Shown here piece after piece: positions 1-40,387 of a stretch of 64,000 nt of DNA (positions are counted from its first letter, which is position 1; each line of letters opens with the position of its first letter). This stretch comes from an uncultured virus (IMG/VR IMGVR_UViG_2061766007_000135). Its lineage: Duplodnaviria > Heunggongvirae > Uroviricota > Caudoviricetes. A program made the translations under genes and the position numbers. The notes below the pieces were generated by a model. That model was not told where the DNA came from and ran no database searches. It saw only the letters and a program-made list of their open reading frames with translations. The stretch lies in the IMG/VR virus record IMGVR_UViG_2061766007_000135; one strand, given 5' to 3'.

Positions 1-1512
1 TCTGCAGCGCTGCTTTTAAATTATATGCATGATATTGCACCATCCACAGTAGAGGAGCATTGGAAATATGGGCTACATAAGGTCAAGACTCATGGCATCG
101 ACATGGACAATATCCCCGAAGGAACTAAACTTGTCGTCGCGCCAGATAGTTCCAGTAATGAGCAAAACAAGCATTACGAACTCTGCGCCAAAGGTGTGGA
201 TGTCATCGTACTCGATCACCATGAAGCCGACAACACAGTTGGCGATCCAGCAATTATCGTCAACAACCAGTTGTGCGCCTATCGGAACAAGTTCCTCTCG
301 GGTGTTGGAGTGGTCTATAAAACCTTGCAATGTTGCGACTCTTTACGACACATTCACGGAGCCGTAAATTGGTTTTTAGATTTGGTTGCGCTTGGTTTAA
401 CCGGCGATATGATGGACGTGCGCTCTCCTGAAACAAATTATTATATTACAGAAGGTTTTACTCAAGTTCGGAATCCATTTTTTGTATATCTTGCAGATAA
501 AAATGAATATTCTATGGAAGGGAAGTTTACTCAGCATTCTGTGGCTTGGTATATTGTACCATTCATTAATGCAGTTACAAGAATTGGGACTGATGAAGAT
601 AAATTATTAGTATTTGAAGCAATGCTTTCTTGGAAAGCTGGTCAGCTTATTTTAAGTGATAAGCGTGGCGCAAAAGGAGAAGAAGAACTTCGTGTTGTAC
701 AAGCTGTACGACATGCTTCAAATGTAAAACGACATCAAGATGAAGAGAAGAAAAAGTTACTTGATGCCATGTATGTTAAAATTGAAAAATATCACTTGGC
801 CGACGAGCCACTAATTATAATTCAGAATAAGGGAGTAGAAGATGATGATCCTATTCGTGGTATTACTGGGCTTGTGGCTAATAGTATCATGGCCACCTAT
901 ACTAAACCAACTCTCATACTTAATGAGATTACGAATCCAGAGACTGGCGAAATTACTTGGTCGGGAAGTGGAAGAGGTTTCAATACTGGCCGTGTTGATA
1001 ATTGGCGTGATTATATTAACAATACCGGCTGTGCCATTTTCGCTGAAGGCCATGCTATGGCTTTTGGTGTCGCTTTTACTCCGGATGGACTCGAACAATT
1101 CAAGACCCGCGTAAGAGAAGACTTCGGAACAACTCAGTTTGAGACTATATATGAAGTCGATTTTGTTTGGACTATGGCAGATAATTTTGATGATATTATC
1201 ATAAATATCGGTCGATATAAAGATATATGGGGACAAGGCGTGCCAGAGCCCCTAGTTGCGATTGAACATATTAAAATTGACGATCCTATTCAAATTAATT
1301 TACTTAATAAAGGTGCATTAAGAATTGATTTAAAACCATCACAAACTTCATTATTGAAATTTGGTAGTAATATAGAAGAATATCAAGAATTACTTGGTAA
1401 AACAATTACAGTAGTTGGTACTTGTGATATTAATGATTATGGTGGACATGAATATCCACAAATTCGTATTAAGGATTATTTCTTTGAAACTGTTTCAGCA
1501 TGGGATTTTTGA
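1..1512 (+). CDS. recJ: RecJ-like ssDNA exonuclease (DHH family), 5'-truncated by window edge
   Basis: Frame open from position 1; VLDHH, LSGVGVVYK, DLVALGLTGDMMD, GSGRG and EGHAMAFG motifs; ends TGA. Confidence 0.9.
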   Translation, partial: SAALLLNYMHDIAPSTVEEHWKYGLHKVKTHGIDMDNIPEGTKLVVAPDSSSNEQNKHYELCAKGVDVIVLDHHEADNTVGDPAIIVNNQLCAYRNKFLSGVGVVYKTLQCCDSLRHIHGAVNWFLDLVALGLTGDMMDVRSPETNYYITEGFTQVRNPFFVYLADKNEYSMEGKFTQHSVAWYIVPFINAVTRIGTDEDKLLVFEAMLSWKAGQLILSDKRGAKGEEELRVVQAVRHASNVKRHQDEEKKKLLDAMYVKIEKYHLADEPLIIIQNKGVEDDDPIRGITGLVANSIMATYTKPTLILNEITNPETGEITWSGSGRGFNTGRVDNWRDYINNTGCAIFAEGHAMAFGVAFTPDGLEQFKTRVREDFGTTQFETIYEVDFVWTMADNFDDIIINIGRYKDIWGQGVPEPLVAIEHIKIDDPIQINLLNKGALRIDLKPSQTSLLKFGSNIEEYQELLGKTITVVGTCDINDYGGHEYPQIRIKDYFFETVSAWDF

Positions 1513-1537
1513 CAAACTAAGAAAGTTATGGTATAAT
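1509..1537 (+). promoter_or_regulatory. sigma70/sigmaA promoter with extended -10
   Basis: TTGACA (1509-1514), 17-nt spacer, TG-n-TATAAT (1529-1537): perfect consensus. Confidence 0.85.
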
Positions 1538-1539
1538 AT

Positions 1540-1800
1540 ATGAAGAATGAGAAATTTGTAGTTGTTCAATTCCCGTTTGAAGAATATGATGCTTGTAGAA
1601 TACAAGATATTTTTGAAGCAATTAGCACACGAGTCGCCAATGTTACTGGTATGGAAACTATTATGATTCCAAGCGATTGTACTTGGAATCTTTTAACAAG
1701 AGAACAGTTAATTAATATAAGAAATACGATTGATATATTATTGGAGAACAAAAATGACTTTAACAGCGAAACAAGAGCAAGGATTGAAAATTGCGGTTGA
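1540..1800 (+). CDS. Hypothetical protein (86 aa)
   Basis: ORF filling the gap between recJ and the helicase; overlaps the helicase start; its ATG lies only 2 nt after the -10 box, so the start is uncertain. Confidence 0.55.
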   Translation: MKNEKFVVVQFPFEEYDACRIQDIFEAISTRVANVTGMETIMIPSDCTWNLLTREQLINIRNTIDILLENKNDFNSETRARIENCG

Positions 1801-2944
1801 ACGCTATAATAACCATGAGCCTTATACTGTCATTGCTGGTTATGCGGGTGTTGGTAAATCTACATTAATTCGTTTTATTATCGCCGCATTGAATTTAAAT
1901 CCTTGGGAACTGGCTTATATCGCATATACTGGTAAAGCTGCGCAAGTATTACGAAATAAAGGCTGCCCCAATGCAATGACTGCTCATAGACTTTTATATA
2001 AATCGCATCCAAGAGAAGATGGTACTTTTGTACATATCCCAGTAGAAACATTAGCTCCACGTAAATTAATTGTAGTTGATGAAATTTCTATGCTGCCTAA
2101 AAAAATGTGGGAACAACTACTTTATTATAAAATTCATGTTATTGCTCTTGGTGACCCTGGTCAGTTACCTCCAGTAGCCGCCGAAAATAATGGTGTGCTG
2201 GAACATCCTCATATTTTTTTGGATGAAGTTATGCGGCAAGCCGCGGAAAGTGAAATTATTCAATTAACTATGGATATACGCGCGGGCAAACCATTGCAAT
2301 ATAAATCTGGCAATGAAGTTCGTATTGTAACGCGTGAAGAATTATTAAAACCTGGATTTTTATTTTGGGGAGATCAAATTATTGTTGGTAAAAATGAAAC
2401 ACGACGTTATATCAACAATAAAATGCGTGAAAGCTATTGGAAAGATCAATTTCAAGAAGAACCAATCATAGGTGATAAATTAATTTGTTTGCGCAATGAC
2501 TGGGAATTTATTAATGACACTAATGATGCTTTAGTTAATGGCTTAACAGGCACATTAACGAAAATAAGACAAGTGACTGATGGGCCGCAATTTAATCCTT
2601 GGATGGATAAAACCTTATTAATTGACTTCCAGCCCGATATAGAAGATACAGCGCCTTTTTCTGAAATTGAAGTTGATTATAAATTGTTATTAACTGGTAC
2701 AACAACAGTCACTAGAGGGCCAAATAGTAATTGGAAAAAGATCCCTAAATTATATCATCCTCATGAATTTGATTATGGATATGCTATTACGTGTCATAAA
2801 GCACAGGGTAGCGAATTTGATAAAGTAATTGTCCTAGAAGAATTTTTAAAAAGTGAAAGTCGTTTAGATCATATTCGCTGGCTTTATACCGCGGCAACGC
2901 GTGCGGCAAAAAAATTAATTATCGTCAAAAACTTTCACACTTGA
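1754..2944 (+). CDS. RecD/Dda-like SF1B DNA helicase
   Basis: GYAGVGKS Walker A, VVDEISM, GDPGQLPPV, YAITCHKAQGSEF, LYTAATRA; GGAG SD before ATG 1754. Confidence 0.9.
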   Translation: MTLTAKQEQGLKIAVERYNNHEPYTVIAGYAGVGKSTLIRFIIAALNLNPWELAYIAYTGKAAQVLRNKGCPNAMTAHRLLYKSHPREDGTFVHIPVETLAPRKLIVVDEISMLPKKMWEQLLYYKIHVIALGDPGQLPPVAAENNGVLEHPHIFLDEVMRQAAESEIIQLTMDIRAGKPLQYKSGNEVRIVTREELLKPGFLFWGDQIIVGKNETRRYINNKMRESYWKDQFQEEPIIGDKLICLRNDWEFINDTNDALVNGLTGTLTKIRQVTDGPQFNPWMDKTLLIDFQPDIEDTAPFSEIEVDYKLLLTGTTTVTRGPNSNWKKIPKLYHPHEFDYGYAITCHKAQGSEFDKVIVLEEFLKSESRLDHIRWLYTAATRAAKKLIIVKNFHT

Positions 2945-2969
2945 AAAAGATAAAAAGTTATGATAAAAT
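2941..2969 (+). promoter_or_regulatory. sigma70/sigmaA promoter upstream of the DNA polymerase
   Basis: TTGAAA-N17-TAAAAT with extended TG; spacer shares AAAGTTATG with the 1509 promoter. Confidence 0.7.
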
Positions 2970-2997
2970 ATATACAGGAAATAAATGAAAGAGGATT

Positions 2998-5900
2998 GTG
3001 AAAATGGCATTTTTTAATGATCACAACCATACCATGTATAGCAATCTACGTCTTATTGATTGTATTAATAAGCCAAAAGACCTGATTGATAAAGCAATTC
3101 AATTAGGTCTTTCTGGCATTGCGATTACAGATCATGAGGCATTGTGTTGTCATATTGAAGTTAATCAATATGCAGCAAAAATCCGTGAAACACATCCTGA
3201 TTTTAAAATTGCATTAGGCAATGAAATTTATCTTACAGATACACGTGGTCCTGCTGCAGGTCCATATTATCATTTTATTCTCATAGCTAAAGATGCTCTT
3301 GGACATAAAGCTTTAAGAATTTTAAGTTCTAAAGCTTGGTATAATATGTATTATGCTGGTATGGAACGTGTCCCAACTTTAAAAAGTGAATTAGCAGAAG
3401 TAATGAAAGAATATAAGGGACACGTAATTGGTACAACAGCTTGTATTGGCGGAGAATTAGGTCATAATCTTTTAGATATGAGATTAGCTGAAAAAGCTGG
3501 ATTGCCGCCATTACCAGATAATCAAGAAAATATTGACCGTTATATGCGGTTTTGTATAGATACTTTTGGCGAAGATTTTTATATTGAGTGTGCGCCTGGT
3601 GAAAGTGCAGAACAGATTTATGTAAACCAGAAACTTTGTGATATTTCAAAGCAATATGGTGTATTAATGGTTCCTGGTACAGATAGTCATTATTTAAGTA
3701 AAGATTTGAGATTTGCGCATAAAGCATATTTAAACTCAAAAGATGGTGAACGTGAAGTAGATAGTTTCTATGAATATTCATATCTTATGAGTGAGGAAGA
3801 ATGTGCAGAGCATTTACGCAAAAGTGGAATGAGTGATGAGTGGATTCAATGGATGTTTGAAAATACTCAGTTAATGCAAAAAAGTATTGAAGATTATGAT
3901 TTAACTCGTCCTCAGCAAATCCCAACAGTGCCAGTCCATCCGCCAGTTAAAAGTGCGTGGTGGGGTGTAAATAACCCATATGCAGATGATATGTCTTGTT
4001 ATCCAGTGTTGCAATCTTTGTTTGTTTCAGATGAACCGCAAGAGCGGCAATGGATACATGATGTCTGGGATGCGCTCAATGAAAAAATAGGATTGTGGGC
4101 AGATAATGATGTATACGTACAAAGGCTTGAAACTGAAGCGACGGTCATCAAAAATATTGGCGAAAAGCTTGGAACTTGCTTGTTTGCTTATTTTAACACT
4201 TTTAAACATTATATTGACTTGTTTTGGGATTGTGGCAGTATTGTTGGCCCTGGACGCGGGAGCGCTACTGGTTTTCTCAGCAATTACTTATTGGGAATTA
4301 CGCAACTTGATCCGATCAAATGGAACTTACCTTGGTGGAGATTTTTAAATAAAGAAAGAGCAGAACTTCCTGATATTGACATTGACTTGGCTCCAAGTGT
4401 TCGTCCATTGATTTTTGAAAAGATTAGAGAAGAACGTGGAGAGCTTGGTTTGGTTCAAGTTGTTACATTTGGAACTGAAGCAACTCGAAGTGCAATTCAA
4501 ACAGCATGTCGTGGTTATCGTGGTCCTGGTGCTGGTTACACAGAAACAATAGTACCAAGTGGTCATCAAGAAGTTGTTGAATTATATAAAGATGGTATTG
4601 ATATTGATACAGCGAACTATTTAACATCACTTATTCCACAAGAGCGTGGTTTTCTTTGGTCTTTTGAAGAATGTATTTATGGTGATGAAAGTAAAGGTCG
4701 TCGTCCAGTACAACCATTAATTGCAGAATTTAATAAGTACCCAGGTTTGATTGACATTGTATTGAATATTGAAGGATTAGTAAAGTCAAGAGGTATTCAC
4801 GCATCAGGTACAATTTTATATGATCCAGCAACGTTATATGATACTGCGGCAATTATGCGCGGGAAAGATGGAGATTTAACAACTTGTTATGATCTTCATA
4901 TGGCAGAAGCCGCAGGAGATACAAAATATGATTTCCTCGTAACAGAAGTTTGCGATAAAATGATTCAATGTCTTAATCTATTAAAAAAAGATAAGCAAGT
5001 TGAAGATTTAAGTTTACGAGAATTATATGATAAGTATTTGCATCCAGAAAAAATTGATACAACTAATCCGGAAATTTGGAAACATTTGGCCGCTGGAGAT
5101 ATTTTGGATGTTTTCCAGTTCAATAGTGGTGTAGGATTGGCGATGGCAAAAGCTATTAAAGCCACTAATCCTCTTGAAATGACCGCAGCAAATGCAATGA
5201 TGCGATTGATGTCAGAACCTGGCACAGAAAGTCAGCAAGATAGATATATTCGTATTCGTGATGGTGGCATTGAACTTTTTGATATGGAAATGCAGAAAGC
5301 TGGGCTGCCAGAAAAAACAATTGCGGCAATGCATCAATATTGTGACACCTATTATGGGTGTTGCGCAATCCAAGAACAAATGATGCAAATCTTAATGGAT
5401 AAAGATATTGCAAATTTTAGTTTGAAAGATGCAAATGATGCTCGTAAGATTGTTGCAAAAAAGCAAATGAAACGTATTCCAAAATTGCGGCAAAAGGTAT
5501 ATGATGCGATTGGTGATGAACATAAAGCAGATTATATTTGGGAAGTCGCCGTTCGTCCTCAGTTAGGATATGCATTTAGTCTGAATCATAGTTTACCTTA
5601 TAGCTTTGTTGGTATTCAAACGATTATATTGGCGACACAGTTTAGTCCTGTATATTGGAATGCAGCCTGTTTGATTGTAAATAGTGGAGCTGTTGATCCA
5701 GAAGAAAAAGGACAAACAGACTATGGTAAAATTGCAAAAGCGGTAAATGATATTAAAAGTCGTGGCATCACCGTTGCGCCGATTGATATTAATGTATCTG
5801 AATATGGATTTACTCCAAATGCAGAAACTAATTCTATTATGTTCGGCATGAAAGGTCTGTTGAATGTAGGAGAAGATGTAATCGCGGCAATTGTAAATAA

Positions 5901-6930
5901 TCGTCCATATAATAGTTTTGAAGAGTTCTGCGCAAAAGTGAAATTAACTCGTCAACCTATGATTTCATTAATTAAATCTGGTGCTTTTGATAAGTTTGGT
6001 GAACGTAAACGTATCATGGCACAATATCTTTGGATCACATGTGATAAAAAGAAACGTATTACATTGCAGAATATGGCGGGTTTAATTCGTCGGAATATGT
6101 TGCCAGAAGAATTAAAAGAGCAATGTCGTATCTTTGAATTTAATCGTTATTTAAAAGATAGATGTAAAAATGCAATGGCGCCAAATGGATATTTATTGGA
6201 TGAACGCGCATTCGGATTTTTGAATGAGTATCCAGTAGAATTTAATTTGGAGCATAAATGCGGATGTTATTGGTTAGCAGAAAAAGAATGGGATAAAGTT
6301 TATCAGGCCGAAATGGATAAAGTAAGAAACTGGATGAAAAATGATCAAGCAGAAGCACTATATCGGCTTAATAAAGAAATCTTTGAAGATGATTGGCATA
6401 AATATGCAACTGGTAACTACTCAAGTTGGGAAATGGAAGTTATGTGTTTATATGATCATGAACACGAATTAGCAAAAGTTAATCGTAGTAAATATGGTTT
6501 AAGTGATTACACAAAACTTCCTGAAGAACCAGTAGTAGAGACATTGTGGCGTGGTCGCATCCCAATTTATCGGTTGTCTCGTATTGCTGGCACAGTTATT
6601 GCAAAAAATAAAATGAAGTCTTTGATTACATTATTGACTGTTGAAGGTGTTGTCACAGTTAAATTTACAAAAGAGTATTTTGCAATGTTCGATAGACAAA
6701 TTAGTCAAAAAGGCAATGATGGAGTAAAGCATGTAGTTGAGCGTTCGTGGTTTCAGCGTGGTAGTATGTTAATTATCACTGGAATGCGACGTGGGGATGA
6801 ATTTGTTGCGAAAAAGTATTCAGCGACACCTGGACATCAAATGTATAAAATTGATACAGTTCTTGCTAACGGTGACTTAGCATTGCGCGCTGAAAGAGCA
6901 ACAGGAGAGAGTGAAGATGAAAGCGAGTAA
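2998..6930 (+). CDS. dnaE: DNA polymerase III alpha subunit (DnaE-type, family C)
   Basis: PHP domain (HNHTMYS, AITDH, GNEIY, TDSHY), GPGRGSA, PDIDID catalytic motif, GIHASG, GYAFSLNHS; start GTG 2998 or ATG 3004. Confidence 0.95.
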   Translation: MKMAFFNDHNHTMYSNLRLIDCINKPKDLIDKAIQLGLSGIAITDHEALCCHIEVNQYAAKIRETHPDFKIALGNEIYLTDTRGPAAGPYYHFILIAKDALGHKALRILSSKAWYNMYYAGMERVPTLKSELAEVMKEYKGHVIGTTACIGGELGHNLLDMRLAEKAGLPPLPDNQENIDRYMRFCIDTFGEDFYIECAPGESAEQIYVNQKLCDISKQYGVLMVPGTDSHYLSKDLRFAHKAYLNSKDGEREVDSFYEYSYLMSEEECAEHLRKSGMSDEWIQWMFENTQLMQKSIEDYDLTRPQQIPTVPVHPPVKSAWWGVNNPYADDMSCYPVLQSLFVSDEPQERQWIHDVWDALNEKIGLWADNDVYVQRLETEATVIKNIGEKLGTCLFAYFNTFKHYIDLFWDCGSIVGPGRGSATGFLSNYLLGITQLDPIKWNLPWWRFLNKERAELPDIDIDLAPSVRPLIFEKIREERGELGLVQVVTFGTEATRSAIQTACRGYRGPGAGYTETIVPSGHQEVVELYKDGIDIDTANYLTSLIPQERGFLWSFEECIYGDESKGRRPVQPLIAEFNKYPGLIDIVLNIEGLVKSRGIHASGTILYDPATLYDTAAIMRGKDGDLTTCYDLHMAEAAGDTKYDFLVTEVCDKMIQCLNLLKKDKQVEDLSLRELYDKYLHPEKIDTTNPEIWKHLAAGDILDVFQFNSGVGLAMAKAIKATNPLEMTAANAMMRLMSEPGTESQQDRYIRIRDGGIELFDMEMQKAGLPEKTIAAMHQYCDTYYGCCAIQEQMMQILMDKDIANFSLKDANDARKIVAKKQMKRIPKLRQKVYDAIGDEHKADYIWEVAVRPQLGYAFSLNHSLPYSFVGIQTIILATQFSPVYWNAACLIVNSGAVDPEEKGQTDYGKIAKAVNDIKSRGITVAPIDINVSEYGFTPNAETNSIMFGMKGLLNVGEDVIAAIVNNRPYNSFEEFCAKVKLTRQPMISLIKSGAFDKFGERKRIMAQYLWITCDKKKRITLQNMAGLIRRNMLPEELKEQCRIFEFNRYLKDRCKNAMAPNGYLLDERAFGFLNEYPVEFNLEHKCGCYWLAEKEWDKVYQAEMDKVRNWMKNDQAEALYRLNKEIFEDDWHKYATGNYSSWEMEVMCLYDHEHELAKVNRSKYGLSDYTKLPEEPVVETLWRGRIPIYRLSRIAGTVIAKNKMKSLITLLTVEGVVTVKFTKEYFAMFDRQISQKGNDGVKHVVERSWFQRGSMLIITGMRRGDEFVAKKYSATPGHQMYKIDTVLANGDLALRAERATGESEDESE

Positions 6931-7498
6931 AATTATAGTTTGTCTTGTGGGCAAGAGTGGATCTGGCAAAGATACACTCGCCCACAAACTCGCCGAGCAA
7001 GTAGGTTGGAATAATGTAATTTCATGTACTACTAGACCTCGTCGAGAATATGAAGTCGATGGTAAAGATTATTTCTTTATTTCAAATGAAGAATTTGCTA
7101 AAAAAGTTTTAGATGGCGATTTATTGGAAGCTACTTATTTTAACACTTGGCACTATGGAACAATGAAATCGACATTAAGAGATGGTATTAATGTCGGCGT
7201 TTGGAATCCTGAAGGTTATGATTGTTTGCGAGAAACTGTAAAATTTGATCCAGAGATTAAATTATTTGCTTATTATCTTCAGTGTGATGATAAGACTCGT
7301 CTATTGCGGCAATTAAATCGTGAAGAGCATCCTGACGTACATGAAATTGTGCGTCGATTCGGTACTGATGAAGAAGATTTTGAATGGCTAGACAATGATG
7401 ATATTCCAACTCTTCGAAATGAAAATTGGGATCATATGCAGTGGAATCAAAACTATATTACAAATATTGTAAATACTTATTTGGACAATCAAGGTTAA
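6917..7498 (+). CDS. gmk: Guanylate kinase-like nucleotide kinase
   Basis: GKSGSGKDT P-loop, SCTTRPRREYEVDGKDYFF, YGT; ATG 6917 has the better SD spacing. Confidence 0.88.
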   Translation: MKASKIIVCLVGKSGSGKDTLAHKLAEQVGWNNVISCTTRPRREYEVDGKDYFFISNEEFAKKVLDGDLLEATYFNTWHYGTMKSTLRDGINVGVWNPEGYDCLRETVKFDPEIKLFAYYLQCDDKTRLLRQLNREEHPDVHEIVRRFGTDEEDFEWLDNDDIPTLRNENWDHMQWNQNYITNIVNTYLDNQG

Positions 7499-7527
7499 GC
7501 AATCTACTTTAATCTTGATATATAATG
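7482..7527 (+). promoter_or_regulatory. Putative phage-specific promoter/regulatory motif, copy A (TGGRCAW-N7-TAA-N2-AA-N2-TA)
   Basis: 30/46 ungapped identity to the motif at 51252-51207 (-); lies just upstream of nrdD. Confidence 0.45.
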
Positions 7528-7554
7528 TATGTCTATAAAGGGGGATTGTATATC

Positions 7555-9885
7555 TTGATTACAAAACGTGATGGTCGAAAAGTAGAATTTGATGGCAATA
7601 AAATTCGTATTGCTGTCGCAAAAGCATATTGGGATCCAGAATGGGCACCAGAAAAACCTTTTCCACCTTATATAGAAGATATTGTATCTTATATTGAAGA
7701 TGAAAATGAAGCCTATGATATTTCAGTAGAAGAAATTCAAGACATCGTTGAAGAATTTTTAATGAAATTTGATCCTAAAACTGCACGACGTTATGTGCGT
7801 TATCGTTATAAGAAAGAAGTAATTCGTGAACAACGTGATGACTTCTTTATGCGCTTAAAGCCAAAAATTGAAGCAACAGACGTACAAAATCAAAATGCTA
7901 ATATAGATGAATATTCTTTTGGTGGCCGCAAAGGAGAAGCAGATGCGGCGGTAATGAAAGAATATGCATTAAATTATTTAATGAGTGATATGGCACGTGA
8001 TAATCATATTAACAATATGATTTATACACATGACTTAGATGCTTATGCTGTTGGTATGCATAATTGCCTCACAATTCCTTTTGATGATCTTTTAGCTAAA
8101 GGTTTTAATACACGACAAACTGATGTGCGACCTGCCAATAGTATCAATACTGCATTTCAATTAATAGCAGTTATTTTTCAGCTACAATCATTACAGCAAT
8201 TTGGTGGCGTTTCAGCTAGTCACTTAGATTGGACTATGGTGCCTTATGTGCGGAAAAGTTTTTGGAAGCATTATTTAGATGGATTAAATTTCGTTTGGGA
8301 TAAAAATATAAAAAATGCGCGTGAACCATTTAGAAATTTTATTCGTAGTAATATTGATGTAGTTAATACTTCTATTGAGGACAATATATATAAAACTGCT
8401 AATATGACTGTACCATATGATTGTGTATTAAGTATATATAATTATGCTATGGAAATGACGAAACGAGAATTATACCAAGCTGTAGAAGGTATGTATCATA
8501 ATCTTAATACTTTACAATCTCGCTCTGGCAATCAACTTCCATTTACCTCTATTAATTATGGTACTTGTACTTTACCTGAGGGCCGTATGGTAATTCGTGC
8601 ATTATTGGATGGTTCACTTAATGGCATTGGAAAATTACATCGAACTTCTGTATTTCCTTGTGGCATTTTCCAATGTATGAAAGGTGTCAATAGAGCACCT
8701 GGCGATCCTAATTATGATTTATTTTGTCTAGCATTAGAAAGTACTGCAAAACGTTTATATCCTAATTATGCTAATTGTGATTGGAGCGGTAATGAAGGAT
8801 ATGACCCAAATGATCCTTGCACTTATTTTAGCACAATGGGTTGTCGTACAGCTAATGGTAAAGATATTAATGTTGAACCTGGAGTTAATGCACAACGTAA
8901 AGATGGACGCGGTAATTTGTGTCCTGTAACGATTATACTGCCTACTCTGGCGATGATGGCCAAGGATGCTTGGCAAGATATTCAAAAGCTAGATAGTGCA
9001 TCCGTTGAGGATGGCACGCGCGGAGACGTAGACGAGAAACCAAAAACGCTCTGGGAAATTTTTATGGCAATTCTTGATACCAAGATTGTCGAAGCAAAAG
9101 ATCAACTAATTGAGCGTTATGAATATATGTGCAAGCAAGATCCTCGTTCTGCGCAATTTATGTATGAAAATCATACAATGTTAGGTTACCATCCAGAAGA
9201 AGGTATTCGTTCTGCATTAAAACATGGGACTCTTACTATCGGACAACTTGGTATAGCCGAAACACTTGAAATTCTTATTGGCACGAACCAGTGTCATCCC
9301 GAAGGTATGAAAGCTGCTAAAGAAATTGAAGAATTATTTAAGAAGCGTTGTAGTGAATTTAAAAACACTTATCGTCTGAACTTTGGTGTTTATTATACAC
9401 CTGCCGAAAATCTTTGTTACACCGCAATGAAGAAATTCAAGAAGCGCTATGGTGTTATTCCTAAAGTATCTGATCATGAGTATTTCACCAATAGTATTCA
9501 TGTGCCAGTTTGGGAAAAGGTTGGAGTACTTGATAAAATTGATATTGAATCTCAGTTAACTGGTTATAGTAACGCTGGTTGTATCACTTATGTAGAATTA
9601 GAAACTGGTATTGCTAATAACTTAAAAGCAATGGAACAAATTGTAAATTATGCAATGGATCATGATATTCCATATTTTGCAATCAATGTTCCGAATGATA
9701 CTTGCTTAGATTGCGGCTATACCGCGGAATTTAATGATTGTTGCCCAGTTTGCGGCAGTCCACATATTCAGCAGCTACGTCGTGTAACTGGATATTTAAC
9801 TGGCAATTATAAAACTGCATTTAACTGGGGCAAACAAAAAGAAACTGAGGAACGAGTAAAACATACAGGAAGGATGGACATTTAA
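7555..9885 (+). CDS. nrdD: Anaerobic (class III) ribonucleoside-triphosphate reductase
   Basis: N-terminal ATP cone (ITKRDGRKVEFD), HNCL, MGCRT, TPAENL, CxxC...CxxC Zn site, glycyl-radical RRVTGYL; probable TTG start after GGGGG SD (ORF track start 7525). Confidence 0.95.
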   Translation: MITKRDGRKVEFDGNKIRIAVAKAYWDPEWAPEKPFPPYIEDIVSYIEDENEAYDISVEEIQDIVEEFLMKFDPKTARRYVRYRYKKEVIREQRDDFFMRLKPKIEATDVQNQNANIDEYSFGGRKGEADAAVMKEYALNYLMSDMARDNHINNMIYTHDLDAYAVGMHNCLTIPFDDLLAKGFNTRQTDVRPANSINTAFQLIAVIFQLQSLQQFGGVSASHLDWTMVPYVRKSFWKHYLDGLNFVWDKNIKNAREPFRNFIRSNIDVVNTSIEDNIYKTANMTVPYDCVLSIYNYAMEMTKRELYQAVEGMYHNLNTLQSRSGNQLPFTSINYGTCTLPEGRMVIRALLDGSLNGIGKLHRTSVFPCGIFQCMKGVNRAPGDPNYDLFCLALESTAKRLYPNYANCDWSGNEGYDPNDPCTYFSTMGCRTANGKDINVEPGVNAQRKDGRGNLCPVTIILPTLAMMAKDAWQDIQKLDSASVEDGTRGDVDEKPKTLWEIFMAILDTKIVEAKDQLIERYEYMCKQDPRSAQFMYENHTMLGYHPEEGIRSALKHGTLTIGQLGIAETLEILIGTNQCHPEGMKAAKEIEELFKKRCSEFKNTYRLNFGVYYTPAENLCYTAMKKFKKRYGVIPKVSDHEYFTNSIHVPVWEKVGVLDKIDIESQLTGYSNAGCITYVELETGIANNLKAMEQIVNYAMDHDIPYFAINVPNDTCLDCGYTAEFNDCCPVCGSPHIQQLRRVTGYLTGNYKTAFNWGKQKETEERVKHTGRMDI

Positions 9886-10421
9886 TGCGCTACGCTGGTA
9901 TTATATATGATGATACTGCGGCAGCTCCTGGACTTTGTTTGTCCTTCTATACTCAGGGCTGTCCAATCCATTGTTTAGGTTGTCATAACCCTGAGACTTG
10001 GGATGAAGAAGGCGGCTACGAATTTACTACAGATACAATGAATCATATCTTAGCTGGTATTCAAAAGAATGGGATTGTTCGTAGCTTTGCGGTATTGGGT
10101 GGGGAGCCACTCTCCCCACATAATGCCTTTTTAACAGCAATGGTTGTCCAAACTGTTAGAGAGCATTTCCCGCAAATTCCAATTTGGGTTTGGTCGGGTT
10201 ATGAAATGTCAGAAATTATTGCAACTTCTAATAGCCCGCATATTCGAATGATTTTATCCAAAGCTGACGCATTAGTTACTGGTCCTTATAAAGAAGAACT
10301 ACGTGATATTAGACTACCATATCGAGGTAGTAGTAATCAAAAAATATTTTTGGTTGACCGTCAAAAAAATCTATGGTATAATAAAGAAAATGAAAGAGAG
10401 GAGTATAGCCCATATGCCTGA
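9885..10421 (+). CDS. nrdG: Anaerobic RNR activating enzyme (radical SAM)
   Basis: GCPIHCLGCHNPETW, LGGEP, RGSSNQ; TAATG coupling to nrdD. Confidence 0.93.
   Translation: MRYAGIIYDDTAAAPGLCLSFYTQGCPIHCLGCHNPETWDEEGGYEFTTDTMNHILAGIQKNGIVRSFAVLGGEPLSPHNAFLTAMVVQTVREHFPQIPIWVWSGYEMSEIIATSNSPHIRMILSKADALVTGPYKEELRDIRLPYRGSSNQKIFLVDRQKNLWYNKENEREEYSPYA
10354..10382 (+). promoter_or_regulatory. sigma70/sigmaA promoter embedded in the nrdG 3' end
   Basis: TTGACC-N17-TATAAT with extended TG; GAGGAG SD and ATG 10414 follow. Confidence 0.75.
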
Positions 10422-10872
10422 TGAAGAACGTATCGTAATGGAACAAGATGAGTATATGGAATATTTGCGCAATCAGGTAAAAGGAGATGCTACCCCTGTT
10501 GCTCAATTAAATCTTTATCAAATGAACAAAGATTTGGTAAAAGGTTTAAAATCAATGACCAATATGGAAATTAATAAAGCACTTGAAAAAGTTCAGGCTT
10601 GGTTTGAACCAAATTTTAAATATTATGCTCTTTTAAATCATGAACAACATTATTTTACGATTTTTCATGATTGCAATTATAAAAATCCAAACAAAACATC
10701 AGAAGCATTTCTGCGAGCATTAAAAGATATTTTAATGAATTGGTATGGAGATAATGATATTCGTGCGATTGATGTGCAAGAGGATGGAGCAGTAGAAATT
10801 TGGGGTATGTGGAATGGCGAACCTACTGTTGCTTATTTATTTCCATATGATCAAGGAGTTGTAGATTATTAA
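10414..10872 (+). CDS. Hypothetical protein (152 aa)
   Basis: GAGGAG SD before ATG 10414; TAATG coupling to the next gene. Confidence 0.75.
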   Translation: MPDEERIVMEQDEYMEYLRNQVKGDATPVAQLNLYQMNKDLVKGLKSMTNMEINKALEKVQAWFEPNFKYYALLNHEQHYFTIFHDCNYKNPNKTSEAFLRALKDILMNWYGDNDIRAIDVQEDGAVEIWGMWNGEPTVAYLFPYDQGVVDY

Positions 10873-11135
10873 TGGAAAAGATTGGTTATTTAAATTTAAA
10901 TGCGACGATGCCCACTTTATTTTCTTTTGTTGATGAAAAAGGTGAGATTCATAAGTTTGAATTTGCTATCGGTAGCCCAAAAGAGTGTATAGATACTGTG
11001 AGTATTCTTATTGAACAACATGGTGTAACTAAAGTTCATTGTAATAAGTTGGCTTATACAGTACATGAAAATATTGCACAACTCTTAAAAACTAATTATA
11101 ATTATAATAATTGTAGCTTTGATCTAACAGAGTAA
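10872..11135 (+). CDS. Hypothetical protein (87 aa)
   Basis: Coupled ORF within the operon. Confidence 0.7.
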   Translation: MEKIGYLNLNATMPTLFSFVDEKGEIHKFEFAIGSPKECIDTVSILIEQHGVTKVHCNKLAYTVHENIAQLLKTNYNYNNCSFDLTE

Positions 11136-11146
11136 GGAGAAAAAAT

Positions 11147-11380
11147 ATGGCTCGTTATCTATTAAATGTTGTTGAAAGTTATCGTGTAAATACCGTTGAT
11201 GAAGCTTTGGCTATGCGTGATGAAATGAGCGCCGCGACAGAATATGAACTACAGTCTTTCCAGTATACTACTAAATTTAATAAGAAAACTGAAGAAGAAT
11301 ATCAGGTCGTAAAAGTAAAGAAAATTATTAATGATGAGAAAGATCCAACATCTGGAGTACAGGTGAATTATGAATATTAA
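11147..11380 (+). CDS. Hypothetical protein (77 aa)
   Basis: AAGGAG SD; overlaps dUTPase start. Confidence 0.75.
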   Translation: MARYLLNVVESYRVNTVDEALAMRDEMSAATEYELQSFQYTTKFNKKTEEEYQVVKVKKIINDEKDPTSGVQVNYEY

Positions 11381-11963
11381 TGCTGGTTTTAAACGTATAA
11401 GTAAATATAAAGATGATGAAAGCATCATCTTGCCAGTGCGTAAAACAAAAGCATCCGCAGGCTATGATTTTTATGTCGCGGAAGATATTGTTGTACCTAG
11501 CTGGTCAAGTACTATTGAAGCGGATTTCGCAAATGAATTAGCGAAAGATTTAAGTTCATATTATGGAACCTTTGAAGACTTTGTGAAAACTCTACCTTAT
11601 GATTTAGAAACTACCTCCACTCTAGTAAAGAAGTATAACCATAAGGTTACATTAGTACCAACTGGTATTAAGGCTTATATGCCCGATGATTGGTATTTAC
11701 AGCTTAGTGTGCGTTCAAGTCTTCCTTTAAAGCATTGGATTATTTTAGGTAATGGCGTCGGAATTATTGACTCTGATTATTATAATAATCCAGATAATGA
11801 AGGCCATATTTATTTTCAATTAATTAATCTTTTACCTTTTGATATACAACTGAAGAAAGGCGATTGTATTGGTCAGGGAGTCTTTCTACAGTATGGTACG
11901 GTAAATGATGATAAGGGTAATGACACTGAACGTGTCGGCGGATTAGGTTCTACAGATGCGTAA
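11370..11963 (+). CDS. dut: Trimeric dUTPase
   Basis: SAGYDF, LVPTGIKA, RSS, GIIDSDYY, IGQGVF, RVGGLGST motifs. Confidence 0.93.
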   Translation: MNINAGFKRISKYKDDESIILPVRKTKASAGYDFYVAEDIVVPSWSSTIEADFANELAKDLSSYYGTFEDFVKTLPYDLETTSTLVKKYNHKVTLVPTGIKAYMPDDWYLQLSVRSSLPLKHWIILGNGVGIIDSDYYNNPDNEGHIYFQLINLLPFDIQLKKGDCIGQGVFLQYGTVNDDKGNDTERVGGLGSTDA

Positions 11964-12444
11964 TATATTAGCATTAGATCAGGCTACCCGTACTACCGGG
12001 TGGTCTGTTTGGCATAATAATACCCTGACTGAATATGGACATATAACTTTTGATGATGAAGATCCATTTAAACGCAATCATCATTTTTGTTAGTGGCTAG
12101 GCACTATGATAGAAACAAGAGACATTGAGTTTGTAGTTATTGAAGATATTTAGATGTAGGTGTAGAATGTCTCTACATTTTAGAAATTGGCTTGGCTCTA
12201 GGGCGCTATCATTGAAAAAGTGCTATGCTAGAATTTAGATTATAAACTATTACGTCCAACTGAGTGGCGTGCAACTTGTAATCTTTTAAAAGGCTAGGAT
12301 AAGCACCGTGAGAATTAGAAAAAAATTGCATAGGATTGGGTGCTAACACATTTTAATCGTAAATGTACCCAAGATGAAGCTGATGCAATTTGTATAGGAT
12401 ACGCCGCAATTACTGCGGAAGATAATGAATTAAATTGGGAGTGA
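11956..12444 (+). CDS. ruvC: RuvC-like Holliday junction resolvase (162 aa, 10 in-frame TAG read as Gln); missing from the ORF track
   Basis: Hand translation: MRNILALDQATRTTGWSV...VVIEDI(Q)M(Q)V(Q)NVSTF(Q)KLAWL(Q)G...PTEWR...TQDEADAICIG; RNase H-fold acidic motifs; fills the dut-holin gap exactly; ends TGA. Confidence 0.88.
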
Positions 12445-12448
12445 GTAT

Positions 12449-12862
12449 ATGGAATGGGCTGTTATAATTGAAGAAGTATTTCGTATTGTATTAATTCCAT
12501 TAGTCGGCATTGCAGTTAAATACTTAATTCAATTTGTAAATATGAAAATTGATGAATTTCAACATAAAACAGATAATGAATTGTATCAAAAATATTTAGC
12601 TATGTTGAATGATACAATAGTAAATGCTGTTACTACTACTAATCAAACTTATGTAGATAGTTTAAAAGCACAAGGTAAATTTGATCTTGAAGCGCAACGT
12701 ATTGCATTCCAAAAGACATATGATGCTGTTATTGCGGTTCTTGGTGAGGAAGCACAGCGTTATTTAAGCGCTGCAGTTGGTGATTTAAATCAATATATTA
12801 CCAACGCTATTGAGCGTCAAGTAGTACTTGATAAATTACTGACACCTGCTACAAATGGATAA
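12449..12862 (+). CDS. Holin-like membrane protein (LL-H-type), TAG-free
   Basis: Single N-terminal hydrophobic helix, AVTTTNQTYVDSLK segment, C-terminal IERQV; family call from recall, not from a search. Confidence 0.6.
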   Translation: MEWAVIIEEVFRIVLIPLVGIAVKYLIQFVNMKIDEFQHKTDNELYQKYLAMLNDTIVNAVTTTNQTYVDSLKAQGKFDLEAQRIAFQKTYDAVIAVLGEEAQRYLSAAVGDLNQYITNAIERQVVLDKLLTPATNG

Positions 12863-12908
12863 AAAAAATAAGGGGTTACTCGTATTTGAGTAACCCCTTA
12901 TTTTTTTT
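12861..12908. terminator. Bidirectional rho-independent terminator
   Basis: Perfect 21-bp inverted repeat AAAAAAAATAAGGGGTTACTC-gtattt-GAGTAACCCCTTATTTTTTTT between convergent stop codons. Confidence 0.93.
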
Positions 12909-13479
12909 ATCCAATTTCATTATGTTCATGTAATGGTAAAGCACGCACACGCTCGTCCCAAATATCCATATGACCATTACCACCTAAATCATGATATAAA
13001 GTCATACGTTCATTATATTGCATTAATTCAATCGGCGTAATATACCCACGCTCAATATAGATTTTACAAGTTTGAATTAAATTATGCAAATGTAAATCTA
13101 AAACACCTTGTTGCAATAATAAAGAATCTTGTTTACTATCTTTTAAATCTGCTCGAATTTCAGCAACTGAACGTTGTAAGTCTTTAACCGCGATTAAAAT
13201 TTCATCGTCTACAGCTTTACTTGCAGCTTCGGCTTGTGCAAATTTTTTATCAATAGCTTCTTCCATAATACGTATTTGCACCTAACATTTTTCACTTAAT
13301 GCTGTTGAGTTACGAGCAAAAGCATCCCATTCCGCCTATTCACGTTGTCGAGCACCTGCTTGTCTATCTTTTTTATTAGGATCAATCAGGTGCTTAGCGA
13401 TTAGTCCGATAATCGCCGCCGCAAGAACTGGAATACCCCATTTAACAAGAGTTTCCAATACTAAACCCCATGTAACCAT
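12907..13479 (-). CDS. Lysis-region membrane-anchored coiled-coil protein (190 aa, 2 TAG)
   Basis: GGAAGGGGAG SD; N-terminal TM (WGIPVLAAAIIGLIA), C-terminal YHDLGGNG...VRALP typical of holin-adjacent Firmicute phage proteins. Confidence 0.7.
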
Positions 13480-13494
13480 ATTTACTCCCCTTCC

Positions 13495-13851
13495 TTAGCC
13501 TAGGATAGCATCTTTGTCATCGCTAGGCTCGCTATCACATTGAGGAGCGAGTTCCGCGATTGCTTTATAATTTTCAGCAATTTTTTTGTAATTTTCTACA
13601 CCGGCTTTTGCTGTATAACCGAGACGCAATGATACATATGTCGTAGTTAAATAAGCAAAAATTGTTTGTGCAAAAGTACCAAGTTCAGGTCTAATCATTA
13701 ATAAAATTAATAGTGTTAAAGATAAAAAAACCCACGTTATTATATCAACAATCGTGAGCTTTTTACTAAATTCAAGCGGTCGCTTTTGCTTTCGCTAAGA
13801 TTGCGGCGATTGCTTTTGCTTGCGCTTCGCTATCGCATTCTAACTTGACAT
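13495..13851 (-). CDS. Putative two-TM holin-like protein (118 aa, 2 TAG), overlapping the endolysin 3' end
   Basis: EFSKKL + TM1 + TM2 + YTAKAGVENYKK; the only ATG upstream of TM1 in the stretch read is 13851, reached through two TAGs. Confidence 0.55.
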
Positions 13852-14692
13852 ACCATTTTTCTTTAGATTCTGAACCATTAACTTTTACCAAATATTTATT
13901 AGACATATAACCAGATTTGTCGTTCCATTCAATGGCTGACCAATCGCCTTCAACAGCCAGCACATCAACAATTTGCCCAAAACGTATAGTAGTAACTACC
14001 CCATATTGTGTGCCGGGGCCTTTACGTAAATTAACTGTAGAGCCGGATGTACCAGTAACTTTAGCTTGATAAACCATTTTTTTCACCTCGATTTTATCTG
14101 GCTGGCTTGGCTGAATGCAGCACTTTTCAGCTTCACCATAATTGGTATATATTACAGTACCAGGATAATAAAATTCTAAAATTTGTTTATAATTAAATCC
14201 TTGTTTAGCCATTTCTTTTGCTCCATACTATGACATACCTACACCATGGCCATTACCTGGACCATTGTCATATGGATCAATTTTAGCTTGTAAATAAGGA
14301 CGATCGCCACCCCATTTTTCTTTTGCGGATTTAATGCGACCTCCATTAGAATTACTATATGAACAAGTTTCTATTAATTTGCCATTATAATATAAAACTT
14401 CCCCTTTTGTCTCTTCTACAGCTAACATTGCATTAGGATACAAAGAGGAAATACGAGAGGCGCGGAAAGCCTAATGTTTACTACTTTGATCAGTAATATA
14501 CCCTTTGTGGGTATACGTATAAAGAGCAAAAGTCCGCGCGGCAACTGCTTGGGCTTTACAAGCTTCTAAAAGGGCGTTGCCAATCTCACTTGGTACAACG
14601 CCCTTCAAATACTCTTCAAACTCAAGATCTACTTCATTCACTCCATAGTGTTCTAGGTTTTCCTATCGTGAAAGAGCGACTTTAATATTCAT
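13772..14692 (-). CDS. SpoIID/LytB-family lytic transglycosylase + SH3b domain (probable endolysin; 306 aa, 3 TAG)
   Basis: EEYLKGVVPSEI, EACKAQAVAARTFA, AVEETKGEVLYYNG, SNGG, PYL, GHGVGMS(Q)YGA...ILEFYYPG; C-terminal VNLRKGPGT...GYMSNKYL SH3; TAGs at 14663, 14471, 14228. Confidence 0.9.
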
Positions 14693-14991
14693 CAGAATAC
14701 AATATTTACACTAACTGAAATCTCTGTGCCGTTAAGAGATTCATTAATTGAACTAATATGAGCAGTAAGCTGGTCAATATTATAAAGTGTATTCTGTTGG
14801 TCATCCTTAATAGTTAAACGATTAATACCATTTAGGCCATAATCACGAAGCCAACTTGCGGTATTGGCATCATTTACAACATTTAAATAAGCCATAGAAT
14901 TCATAATACCATTCTCAAAAGTAGTATTACGATTAAAACCAGTCAACTGAATAGTCTTGCCAGCATCGCCATTAAATATTACATAAGTCAT
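14692..14991 (-). CDS. Hypothetical protein (99 aa), TAG-free
   Basis: GGAGGG SD; TGATG coupling to the endolysin. Confidence 0.75.
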   Translation of the reverse strand: MTYVIFNGDAGKTIQLTGFNRNTTFENGIMNSMAYLNVVNDANTASWLRDYGLNGINRLTIKDDQQNTLYNIDQLTAHISSINESLNGTEISVSVNIVF

Positions 14992-15008
14992 AATGCTTAA
15001 CCCTCCAA

Positions 15009-16058
15009 TTATATAAATAAAGCTCCATTGCCGAGTAGCTTAATATAGCTTTCCGGCATATCATTATTAGCAGTAGCCCAACAATAAATCGACATAATAG
15101 CATTAAATAATTTATCTCGATCTTGCTCAATTACTTCATTCTATGCTACCAACTAATCCATTTTATTTTCAAAATCATTACGAATAGTTTGAAGATTTAT
15201 GCCCCTATTAACCAAAAGATGACAATCATAAATATTGCCTTGATAATCTATGGTTTTACTTTCGATACCTGCTAGACAACGATGATATTCACTTGTATAA
15301 AACATTTCATTATAAGTTTCATACTAACGTGCTACATATACCCATTTATTATAATTAATTCCATCCTATTTGGTATAATTTCCTGGGACTTCCATAGTAG
15401 GAGCAGTTAATCCCACTTGCCAATATTCAGAACCAAAAGGAGCATTCTCTATATTGGGTAAAAGTTTTTTATGTAAATGCGTCATATCAGTAAACCATAA
15501 TACAGGATCAAAAGTTAAATCTTCGGCTGTTAAAGTGGCTTTTGTAATTAACCGTAATTTTGTATATGTGTATAAGTGAATATCTGCTATATAAGTATTA
15601 TAAATAGTTGAAATATTATTTACACAAGTATCAAAAGAATTAATACCACGTTTATTATCGTGCAAGCGTTTGGGCCCATCTAAGCTTAATTGTATAATAA
15701 CAATTAATTTACGTTTATGTAAAGTACAATAAGTTAAAAGTGGCTTAATAAAATCCTAATAAAAAGAAATAGATTGCCCATTTGTAGGAATCATAATATA
15801 CCGAATATAAGGGTCATAGTCTAAAATTTCGGTAATAAATTTTTCAAAATATTTACCATTAATACTAGGTTCCATACCCCAGATACCTAAACTAATAATA
15901 TCTGGAGTTAAAGCGGCTCGAACATGATGCGCAAAACTCCCATCTTGTAATGCAGCAACAATATTAGCATTAGTATTATGCTGTTTATTCTACATAATAC
16001 AATAAGTACATTGTTCATTACAAATATCACTATAATATATATCTAAATTTGTTATCAT
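15009..16058 (-). CDS. Radical SAM enzyme with SPASM/twitch-like C-terminus (349 aa, 6 TAG)
   Basis: CNEQCTYC (CxxxCxxC), WGMEP, PTNG, SLDGPKRLHDNKRG, CLAGIESKTIDYQGNIYDCH; ends TAA. Confidence 0.85.
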
Positions 16059-16123
16059 GATTCAAACCACTTTTCATCTTCCCAGGTATTTAGCCACAAA
16101 GCTACACATAAAGACATACACAT
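16055..16123 (-). CDS. Small Trp/Cys-rich ORF MCMSLCVALWLNTWEDEKWFES (22 aa), candidate leader or precursor peptide
   Basis: AAGGGGGT SD 8 nt upstream; its TGA overlaps the radical SAM ATG (ATGA). Confidence 0.45.
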   Translation of the reverse strand: MCMSLCVALWLNTWEDEKWFES

Positions 16124-16145
16124 TTCATTTTACCCCCTTTACTTT

Positions 16146-16174
16146 ACAGTATAAAATTTTTGTCATTTTGTCAA
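16146..16174 (-). promoter_or_regulatory. Possible sigma70-type promoter for the peptide/radical SAM/lysis genes
   Basis: TTGACA (16174-16169), 17-nt spacer, TACTGT (or TATACT at 15-nt spacing). Confidence 0.45.
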
Positions 16175-16177
16175 ATT

Positions 16178-22615: not shown

Positions 22616-22631
22616 TTATGTCAAGCCCCCT

Positions 22632-40128: not shown

Positions 40129-40174
40129 TAAATAATATAAAATTATTTCTACATTATTTAATCATTCATGCCCA
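40129..40174 (-). promoter_or_regulatory. Putative phage-specific motif, copy C
   Basis: TGGGCAT-N7-TAA-AT-AA-TG-TA, same spacing as copies A and B. Confidence 0.35.
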
Positions 40175-40370
40175 TATCCACTTCTTGCCATTTAGCAATT
40201 TCAGAAGCGGGAATGGTCACAATTTTTACACGTCTTTCACCATCGGTTAAGATTTTACCATTATCGGCATGAAGCTTGAGTAATTTTACAGAGTAAATAC
40301 CCTCTAAATATACTTGGCTTTCAATCGTACCATTGGTGCCCAAATAACGATACATTGGAGTTTTAGTCAT
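40158..40370 (-). CDS. Small tail-associated hypothetical protein (70 aa), TAG-free
   Basis: AAGGAGG SD before ATG 40370; LHADNGKILTDG motif. Confidence 0.75.
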   Translation of the reverse strand: MTKTPMYRYLGTNGTIESQVYLEGIYSVKLLKLHADNGKILTDGERRVKIVTIPASEIAKWQEVDMGMND

Positions 40371-40387
40371 AATAATCCTCCTTATTC

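Follow-up and report, generated by a model that had tools for sequence, protein, structure and literature searches.

Recoding of a stop codon by phages has already been proposed to act as a switch for late and lysis genes (Borges et al., bioRxiv 10.1101/2021.08.26.457843), and the early/late model to which the original prediction for the DNA described here appealed is indeed the one put forward for recoded phages in that work. In the sections of the preprint drawn on here, the replication machinery is described as standard-code in the crAss-like and Agate examples, and as variable elsewhere. For Phass-1, of the proposed Phassvirus, the relevant sections report TAG as a glutamine codon, tRNA-CUA genes, many tRNAs, no aminoacyl-tRNA synthetase (aaRS) of its own and a suspected Clostridia host; its recoded open reading frames (ORFs) are mostly virion genes plus several DNA-processing enzymes (Babkin et al. 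2023, PMC10607447). Here we analyse a stretch of 64 kb (64,000 nucleotides, G+C content 34%) of the uncultured Caudoviricetes virus IMGVR_UViG_2061766007_000135 from IMG/VR, referred to as the window. Its plus strand contains a block of replication and nucleotide-metabolism genes, from recJ to the dUTPase gene dut, that is free of in-frame TAG, followed in the same unit by a TAG-rich gene for a RuvC-like Holliday junction resolvase; its minus strand contains tail and lysis genes written with TAG. Early/late recoding, in which a phage tRNA-CUA is added to a standard-code host and late functions are written with TAG, is the best explanation for this arrangement, and one that we hold to be somewhat more probable than all others together.

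Under code 11, long ORFs are found on the plus strand from 1 to 12862, and the minus strand from 12907 onward is left in short fragments. Once TAG is taken as sense, the minus strand resolves into a tightly packed row of 28 genes of 77–2562 amino acids (aa). In-frame TAG splits genes that are supported by homology, read-through restores long ORFs matching tail, lysis and RuvC families, and none of the 41 genes of the window has TAG as its stop. The RecJ-to-dUTPase block (25–11963, plus strand) was predicted to consist of eleven consecutive genes without in-frame TAG, stopping on TAA or TGA, and this is what we find: 4004 codons, counted as longest ORFs, contain 139 CAA or CAG and no TAG, with TAA as the stop in seven genes and TGA in four. 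In the 28 minus-strand genes, 237 of 16859 codons are TAG, a 39% share of the glutamine-type codons (TAG, CAA and CAG). The late-gene rate predicts around 56 TAG in the block, and the probability of finding none is about 2e-25 (Fisher's test for TAG against CAA plus CAG, block against late genes, 1.7e-26). As the eleven genes contain 128 off-frame TAG, the trinucleotide itself is not avoided. The block also translates alike under both codes, as had been claimed, apart from the Gmk frame, which extends upstream into DnaE when TAG is read as glutamine; the ORFs are otherwise identical and the large genes match profiles over their full length, so ORF calling cannot account for the lack of TAG. 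The four poorly conserved hypothetical genes of the block have TAG at none of their 17 glutamine codons (P about 2e-4 at the late rate). Fast-evolving early genes are thus TAG-free too, and the pattern is not accounted for by conserved enzymes evolving slowly.

The two gene sets differ also in their standard glutamine codons, CAG making up 28% of CAA plus CAG in the early genes and 10% in the late genes (p 1e-6). A difference of this kind would be expected if the replication block had recently been acquired from a standard-code phage and were too young to have gained TAG. The standard-code phages Enterococcus VRE9_3 and EF1, SPbeta and phiCD211 do have homologues of the DnaE, Gmk, dUTPase and RuvC genes, arranged in the same order. 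Such a mosaic origin is nevertheless highly improbable. The window is colinear with the record of a recoded relative, G001, over both the replication and the tail/lysis modules; the block, its promoters and the TAG-rich RuvC at its end are common to all recoded lineages examined; and the heavy recoding of RuvC indicates that the unit has long been in a recoding background.

In the window phage, TAG encodes glutamine (code 15). When 114 window TAG sites were aligned to relatives, glutamine was the commonest partner (29) and lysine the next (12), and the log-likelihood over these sites was −311 for glutamine versus −363 for lysine, the next best residue, favouring glutamine by 51 log units. TAG and glutamine codons interchange at the same conserved columns of RuvC among relatives, and the ten TAGs of the window RuvC are aligned with glutamine at six positions, alanine at two and lysine at two in the RuvC of the cultured, standard-code phage VRE9_3. 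Glutamine makes up 3.47% of the early gene products and 3.62% of the late ones with TAG counted (2.22% without it), so that early and late contents are in balance only with TAG included. Paralogy was uninformative on suppressor identity, with Leu, Trp, Leu and Val tRNAs, at 64–71% identity, as the nearest paralogues of the four tRNA-CUA found in relatives; the glutamine assignment is based on the alignments. The possibility that TAG replaced CAG in particular was considered and is not supported: window TAG sites align with CAA 22 times, with CAG 7 times and with TAG 9 times in relatives, which does not differ from window CAA sites.

If the host itself read TAG as glutamine, there would be no switch at all. 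A TAG-free block of 4004 codons would be senseless were TAG an ordinary sense codon of the host, and the relatives encode their own tRNA-CUA. Furthermore, the closest relatives in culture are phages of Enterococcus and Clostridioides with standard-code annotation, and the nearest genomic endolysin matches are in Bacillota and Clostridiales assemblies. We know of no bacterial lineage with TAG as glutamine, and consider a recoded host the least probable of the explanations discussed here.

The RuvC-like resolvase gene (11956–12444, plus strand; phrog_159/827, 2e-18; PF02075) directly follows dut, its ATG at 11956 overlapping the dut stop by 8 nucleotides (nt). This is most likely the start; from 11905 the gene would contain 11 TAG instead of 10. 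TAG is used at 10 of the 12 glutamine codons, making RuvC the most TAG-dense gene of the window, at 62 per 1000 codons versus 14 for the late block. A conservative test, with TAG at 10 of 13 glutamine codons, gave a binomial p of 0.006. The first TAG is at codon 46, with the others spread through the gene. The PF02075 match (4e-6) covers 144 of 148 positions, and a profile of three members of the RuvC family matches Escherichia coli RuvC (1hjr, E 1.7e-5, residues 4–159); a PDB search with the single RuvC sequence gave no match. Asp8, Glu63, Asp140 and Asp143, which we take to be the RuvC catalytic residues, are invariant. The reading frame is thus predicted to encode a genuine RuvC resolvase. 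In correction of the original prediction, the plus-strand unit does not stop at 11963: RuvC and the holin-like gene come after dut, ahead of a hairpin terminator.

Host-type sigma70 promoters had been predicted in the block. When window positions 1–16500 were scanned for sigma-70-like sites and compared with shuffled sequences, the total of 81 matches did not exceed the 77.8 ± 8.4 obtained from the shuffles. The prediction thus holds only in part, and what supports it is the placement of three near-consensus, TG-extended sites at plus-strand gene junctions, which have a common AAAgtTATGgTAtAAT core and are kept in G001: P1 (1509–1537, plus strand; TTGACA-17-TATAAT plus TG extension, 12/12), P2 (2941–2969, plus strand; TTGAAA-17-TAAAAT plus TG, 10/12) and P3 (10354–10382, plus strand; TTGACC-17-TATAAT plus TG, 11/12). 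In G001, perfect sites occupy the equivalent positions: the junction homologous to that of P1, ahead of the Dda homologue; a position preceding the DnaE homologue, as for P2; and the junction homologous to that of P3. These are three of five TG-extended SigA-like sites in the G001 replication block; the record has 66 in all, 57 of them within its early/tRNA region and 4 across the 70 kb of the late region. P3 probably drives hyp152, hyp87, hyp77, dut, ruvC and the holin-like gene. From P3 to a hairpin at 12857 we observe no gap, promoter or terminator, and because nothing interrupts this stretch, RuvC appears to be co-transcribed with the TAG-free genes on both sides of it. The hairpin (12857–12912), a putative bidirectional terminator, sits between the convergent plus and minus units; it is a perfect 26-bp hairpin with an A-run on one side and a T-run on the other (−37.6 kcal/mol, z −11.1).

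A DnaE search yielded 13 IMG/VR loci at 39–65% identity. The window has no near match among GenBank phages, and an exact 48-nt piece of it does not occur in the viral_contigs and metagenome_contigs collections. Contigs of 105–169 kb were used for whole-record work on the relatives, G001 being 168.7 kb. Four of seven relatives' records carry 12–37 tRNA matches with exactly one tRNA-CUA each, and the other three are fragments without tRNA. All four tRNA-CUA have a mismatched 1:72 pair and G73, presumably glutamine-like identity features. The tRNA-CUA is preceded by a SigA-like site at a distance of about 40 nt in G001 and of 106 nt in G002. The G001 tRNA-CUA (33636–33726; L044 7637–7727) measures 91 nt and has a long variable arm; those of G002–G004 are 75–76 nt long. 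The tRNA arrays of the relatives also contain a ROOL RNA (350 bits, G003) and tmRNA genes (G002, G003), at L047 10054–10649 and 7487–7802 and at L045 7450–7780; in the 64-kb window, an Rfam scan detected neither a ribozyme nor a member of any other family.

In the proposed mechanism, the replication and nucleotide-metabolism unit, reading alike in both codes and placed behind SigA-type host promoters, could be expressed at once by a standard-code host. Nearly all tail and lysis proteins, and RuvC, would be completed only when the phage tRNA-CUA, charged with glutamine, outcompetes release factor 1. For most late genes such a lock would be redundant with transcriptional control. For RuvC it would be the sole delay visible in the sequence, because the gene appears to be co-transcribed with the dUTPase gene; in the absence of suppression, its translation would halt at codon 46. 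Three elements of this scheme are inferred: a tRNA-CUA in the window's genome, a code-11 host, and a suppression that increases over time and holds back the proteins concerned.

To extend the comparison over recoded lineages, a RuvC-profile search was used, which gave 80 further viral loci; at 80% identity these form 32 clusters, of which 18 are clearly recoded. The other 14, most of which look standard-code, were dropped as having fewer than six TAG outside RuvC and its upstream genes. The search pattern required CAA or CAG at two glutamine positions of RuvC, a bias against TAG in this gene. In the 18 recoded clusters, TAG accounts for 83 of 1267 glutamine-type codons (6.6%) on the replication side, defined as the same-strand genes upstream of RuvC, for 315 of 1342 (23.5%) in all other genes of the loci and for 53 of 182 (29%) in RuvC. 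The TAG share of the replication side is below that of the rest in all 18 clusters (p 8e-6), and the bias is therefore general in this phage family. The TAG share of RuvC is above that of its upstream genes in 13 of the 18 clusters (sign test p 0.096) and below it in five, three of which have no TAG in RuvC; pooled, the difference gives a Fisher value of 6.5e-17, although this test treats as independent sites that share a lineage. Across the recoded clusters, the coding of RuvC resembles that of late genes. Four loci in which only RuvC had seemed recoded (L078, L079, L094 and L095, with 3 TAG in RuvC) were rejected: the representative, L078, has no TAG in the aligned stretch, so the TAGs lay in a spurious upstream extension of the ORF.

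The extent of recoding differs widely between relatives. In the G001 clade, the replication genes contain 1 TAG in 6222 codons and RuvC contains 4; TAG in G001 is found mainly in the tail and tape-measure protein (TMP), lysis and RuvC genes, with 1.1 per 1000 in the fibres. In G002, the replication genes have 2.9–3.2 TAG per 1000 codons and RecJ 22 (13 TAG in the whole RecJ ORF), and the structural block has a mean of 23 per 1000. The homologue of the 2562-aa protein, which has 18 TAG in the window, has none in G001.

Several observations weigh against a simple early/late switch. The replication side is strictly TAG-free in only two of the 18 recoded clusters. In the aligned parts of the L005–L011 clade, TAG is present in RecJ (8), Dda (1–2), DnaE (1–2), Gmk (2–3), NrdD (0–2) and NrdG (1–2), and TAG suppression must be needed in these phages already while the replication proteins are made. 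Within the window, the TAG boundary falls inside the plus-strand unit, at RuvC, its twelfth gene, and the thirteenth, holin-like, is again TAG-free. This holin-like gene (12449–12862) limits the claim that tail and lysis genes need TAG suppression, which applies to 25 of the 28 minus-strand genes, with 1–42 in-frame TAG each and including the three genes of the lysis cassette (2, 2 and 3 TAG). A late gene of 621 codons, hyp621 (37747–39612), has 2 TAG, the first of them at codon 598; a near-full-length product would be possible without suppression. TAG does not look like a gate at the 5' ends of genes, as it shows no skew towards them (mean rank 0.499 among glutamine codons, n = 244), and the base at +4 is not distinctive (p 0.07). 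The late block has two strong SigA-like sites on its own coding strand (22596–22624 and 61312–61340). As to the suppressor, a scan of the 64-kb window detected no tRNA of any kind, and the records of the two closest relatives, which are 61% and 11% complete, have none either; in G001 and G002, the tRNA-CUA lies behind an early-type promoter, so no delay is set by the sequence. Finally, no RF-1-domain protein or class-Ic aaRS gene was found in five relatives' records, hence no 'code-change module' is seen beyond the tRNA itself.

Code-neutral replication genes are, then, a tendency in this phage family and not a rule, and the published idea appears too simple, given that strict code-neutrality is the exception among relatives. 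The main rival explanation is constraint plus neutral spread: TAG would spread nearly neutrally wherever it is tolerated, genes that must work before the suppressor does or independently of it would be kept cleaner by selection, and the pattern would be a by-product without any timer. The window would mark one position along a series of relatives running from light to heavy recoding. Such a gradient is what we see, from G001 (mainly tail/TMP, lysis and RuvC genes) through the window (nearly all late genes) to G002 (replication genes too). The rarity of strictly TAG-free replication sides, the lack of positional skew or special context of TAG, the contrast between 18 and 0 TAG in the 2562-aa protein, and the variable recoding of replication genes in the sections consulted of Borges et al. 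(10.1101/2021.08.26.457843) would all be natural on these terms. Less readily accommodated are the lower TAG share of the replication side in each of the 18 lineages and the TAG-free state of the poorly conserved early genes, for which slow evolution alone fails. Nor does a simple by-product predict the late-gene level of TAG that RuvC shows (29% when pooled; 10 of 12 codons in the window) inside a TAG-poor unit. We give constraint without regulation an appreciable chance, though well short of an even one. The early/late switch of the original prediction is partly supported: it gains from the codon pattern, the glutamine assignment, the predicted promoters, the relatives' tRNA-CUA and the bias in 18 of 18 clusters; it loses from the TAG boundary inside the plus-strand unit, the TAG-free holin-like gene and its strictness in only two of 18 lineages.

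Suppression may also be costly. If decoding of TAG is slow or incomplete, TAG would be avoided where full-length output matters most, whatever the timing. A phrog_4088 protein of about 350 aa, encoded downstream of portal and scaffold-like genes, has no TAG in G001 (L053 3869–4915) or even in the heavily recoded G002 (L059 11674–12726). Judged by its position only, it is probably the major capsid protein, a limit that counts against building on it. In addition, a phrog_2729 virion protein of 463 aa is TAG-free in G002, and three short minus-strand genes inside the window's late block (14692–14991, 40158–40391 and 57981–58367) are TAG-free as well. Replication enzymes, however, are not expected to be the most abundant products, yet they form the cleanest block. 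As the whole explanation, cost is improbable; it may act together with early/late recoding.

In a narrower form of the early/late explanation, TAG would not be a global early/late switch but primarily a safety lock, holding back the junction-cutting resolvase together with the tail and lysis functions. RuvC would be transcribed with the early nucleotide-metabolism genes from a host-type promoter, and its TAGs would block translation until the suppressor works. We put this forward tentatively, as a proposal with a minority share of our confidence. If true, the lock would shield branched, replicating DNA from premature cutting, and the gradient among relatives would reflect the order of locking: RuvC, tape-measure and lysis genes first, then fibres, and then even replication genes. 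In any event, ruvC stands out as a single gene in which a TAG lock would not be confounded by transcriptional control.

All genes of the block lie on the plus strand. The first encodes a RecJ-like single-stranded DNA exonuclease (25–1512; phrog_2484, 8e-109; Pfam DHH and RecJ_OB), followed by a hypothetical protein of 86 aa without a family match (1540–1800) and a Dda-like superfamily 1 helicase (1730–2944; phrog_325, 4e-94; AAA_30 and UvrD_C_2), whose real start is probably later than 1730. The DnaE-type DNA polymerase III alpha subunit (2998–6930; phrog_405, 3e-222, and Pfam) has PHP, polymerase, fingers and HHH domains in 1310 codons. Nucleotide metabolism is represented by guanylate kinase (Gmk, 6911–7498; phrog_1815, 3e-36; PF00625), the anaerobic ribonucleotide reductase NrdD (7525–9885; PF13597, 3e-138) and the NrdG activase (9885–10421; phrog_626, 2e-39; Fer4_12). 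The hypothetical proteins hyp152 (152 aa; 10414–10872, longest ORF from 10303), hyp87 (87 aa; 10872–11135) and hyp77 (77 aa; 11147–11380) precede the dUTPase (11370–11963; phrog_135, 6e-35; PF00692), the last of the eleven genes, every one of which has 0 TAG. None of the four small hypothetical proteins has an informative match to a family or in the Atlas. Among them, hyp77, also without a family, is 81% identical to its G001 homologue, a value above that of DnaE (62%) and of every other gene compared; its Atlas neighbours are viral hypothetical proteins. In L012 (14406–17883), the NrdD homologue aligns in two pieces about 1.2 kb apart, which suggests an intron, an intein or an inserted endonuclease gene; the window NrdD is uninterrupted.

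Beyond RuvC, the holin-like protein of the plus strand is assigned by phrog_13712 ('holin', 5e-28), with Holin_LLH reaching just E 0.019, and has a single N-terminal transmembrane (TM) segment and a coiled coil. On the minus strand, the lysis cassette (12907–14692) encodes a phrog_4105 TM protein, a two-TM protein of 127 aa and a SpoIID+SH3 cell-wall hydrolase. Comparison of window positions 12449–13479 with G001 144640–146593 shows that the holin-like gene and the phrog_4105 membrane protein gene have exchanged strands, the gene after RuvC on the replication strand being holin-like in the window and a phrog_4105 homologue in G001. The exchange points to an inversion where the two convergent units meet. 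The late block of 25 genes (14692–63998, minus strand; 22 of 25 with in-frame TAG) is open at the window end, where the tape-measure-like gene (58398–63998) runs off. It encodes a radical-SAM protein, tail fibres with Laminin_G_3 and BspA-LRR domains, the 2562-aa protein, tail proteins and the tape-measure-like protein. The radical-SAM-like protein (15009–16058, 6 TAG), located between the lysis cassette and the tail fibres, has weak matches to PF04055 (5e-4) and phrog_1802 (1e-8).

The minus-strand site at 61312–61340 is a perfect TTGACA-17-TATAAT with TG extension inside the tape-measure-like gene, and an 11/12 site is found in G001 at 106911–106939, inside the tape-measure homologue and adjoining a stretch that aligns to the window. 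It may be a conserved internal promoter for downstream tail genes. Elsewhere in G001, some 10 kb (62993–73359; L052, L053) carry about two dozen TTGACA-17-TGnTATAAT sites, perfect or nearly so, on one strand and among small ORFs, in what looks like a dense early-promoter region.

The window is 64 kb of a large, gut-type phage whose host is likely one of the Bacillota, to judge by the VRE9_3-like gene order and the SpoIID+SH3 lysin. An endolysin search of genome assemblies returned only two matches, both weak, in Bacillota and Clostridiales, which point the same way; a DnaE search of genome_contigs found no relative. Its DnaE places the phage, as far as sequence comparison goes, in a DnaE-polymerase group with Phass-1, EF1 and VRE9. 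Phass-1 is the closest GenBank record by DnaE, at 39% identity, and so only a distant relative; identity to the EF1, VRE9 and SPbeta-type phages is 37%. The 26 kb around the Phass-1 DnaE contain no RuvC homologue, and sections 2.1, 2.5 and 3 of the Phass-1 paper (PMC10607447) contain no early/late analysis. Enterococcus phage VRE9_3 has the order Dda helicase, DnaE, Gmk, hypothetical protein, dUTPase and resolvase, followed by convergent tail genes (phrog_32343, phrog_30026), and RuvC is thus a regular member of the replication unit in standard-code relatives too. The RuvC proteins of VRE9_3 and EF1 are 38–39% identical to that of the window; these records differ in being annotated in the standard code and in having an 89-nt gap between the dUTPase and resolvase genes, where the window has an 8-nt overlap.

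With the system of Borges et al. (10.1101/2021.08.26.457843), as set out in the sections used here, the window shares TAG as glutamine in a phage of what would be a standard-code host, recoded structural and lysis genes, and replication machinery in standard code, as in the crAss-like and Agate examples; a suppressor tRNA would be the agent here too. It differs in lineage, the DnaE-type large phages infecting Bacillota apparently being none of the clades named there, and in that no release factor or aaRS 'code-change module' was found in five records of its relatives. The bias of lysis genes is stressed in that work, whereas the holin-like gene of the window is TAG-free. The words resolvase, RuvC and nuclease are not found in the main text of the preprint, and a literature search on Holliday junction resolvase, suppressor tRNA and recoded phage gave nothing related among the matches listed. 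The closest analogue of the window RuvC would be the recoded homing endonuclease of Agate described in parts of the same preprint: it too is a DNA-cutting enzyme in an early unit, heavily recoded and expected only late. There, however, TGA encodes tryptophan and the gene is intron-borne, whereas in the window the codon is TAG, read as glutamine, and RuvC is an ordinary member of the replication unit.

For annotation, the practical consequence is that code 11 breaks the late 51 kb of the window into fragments. What is seen here, the model for it and the broad lineage have all been published, and the TAG-rich resolvase within a TAG-free, host-promoter-driven unit is one addition to them. The window also offers a clean, well-delimited example from a Bacillota phage of recoding that would separate early from late protein synthesis, and the cultured, standard-code Enterococcus relatives with the same gene order provide a possible laboratory frame.

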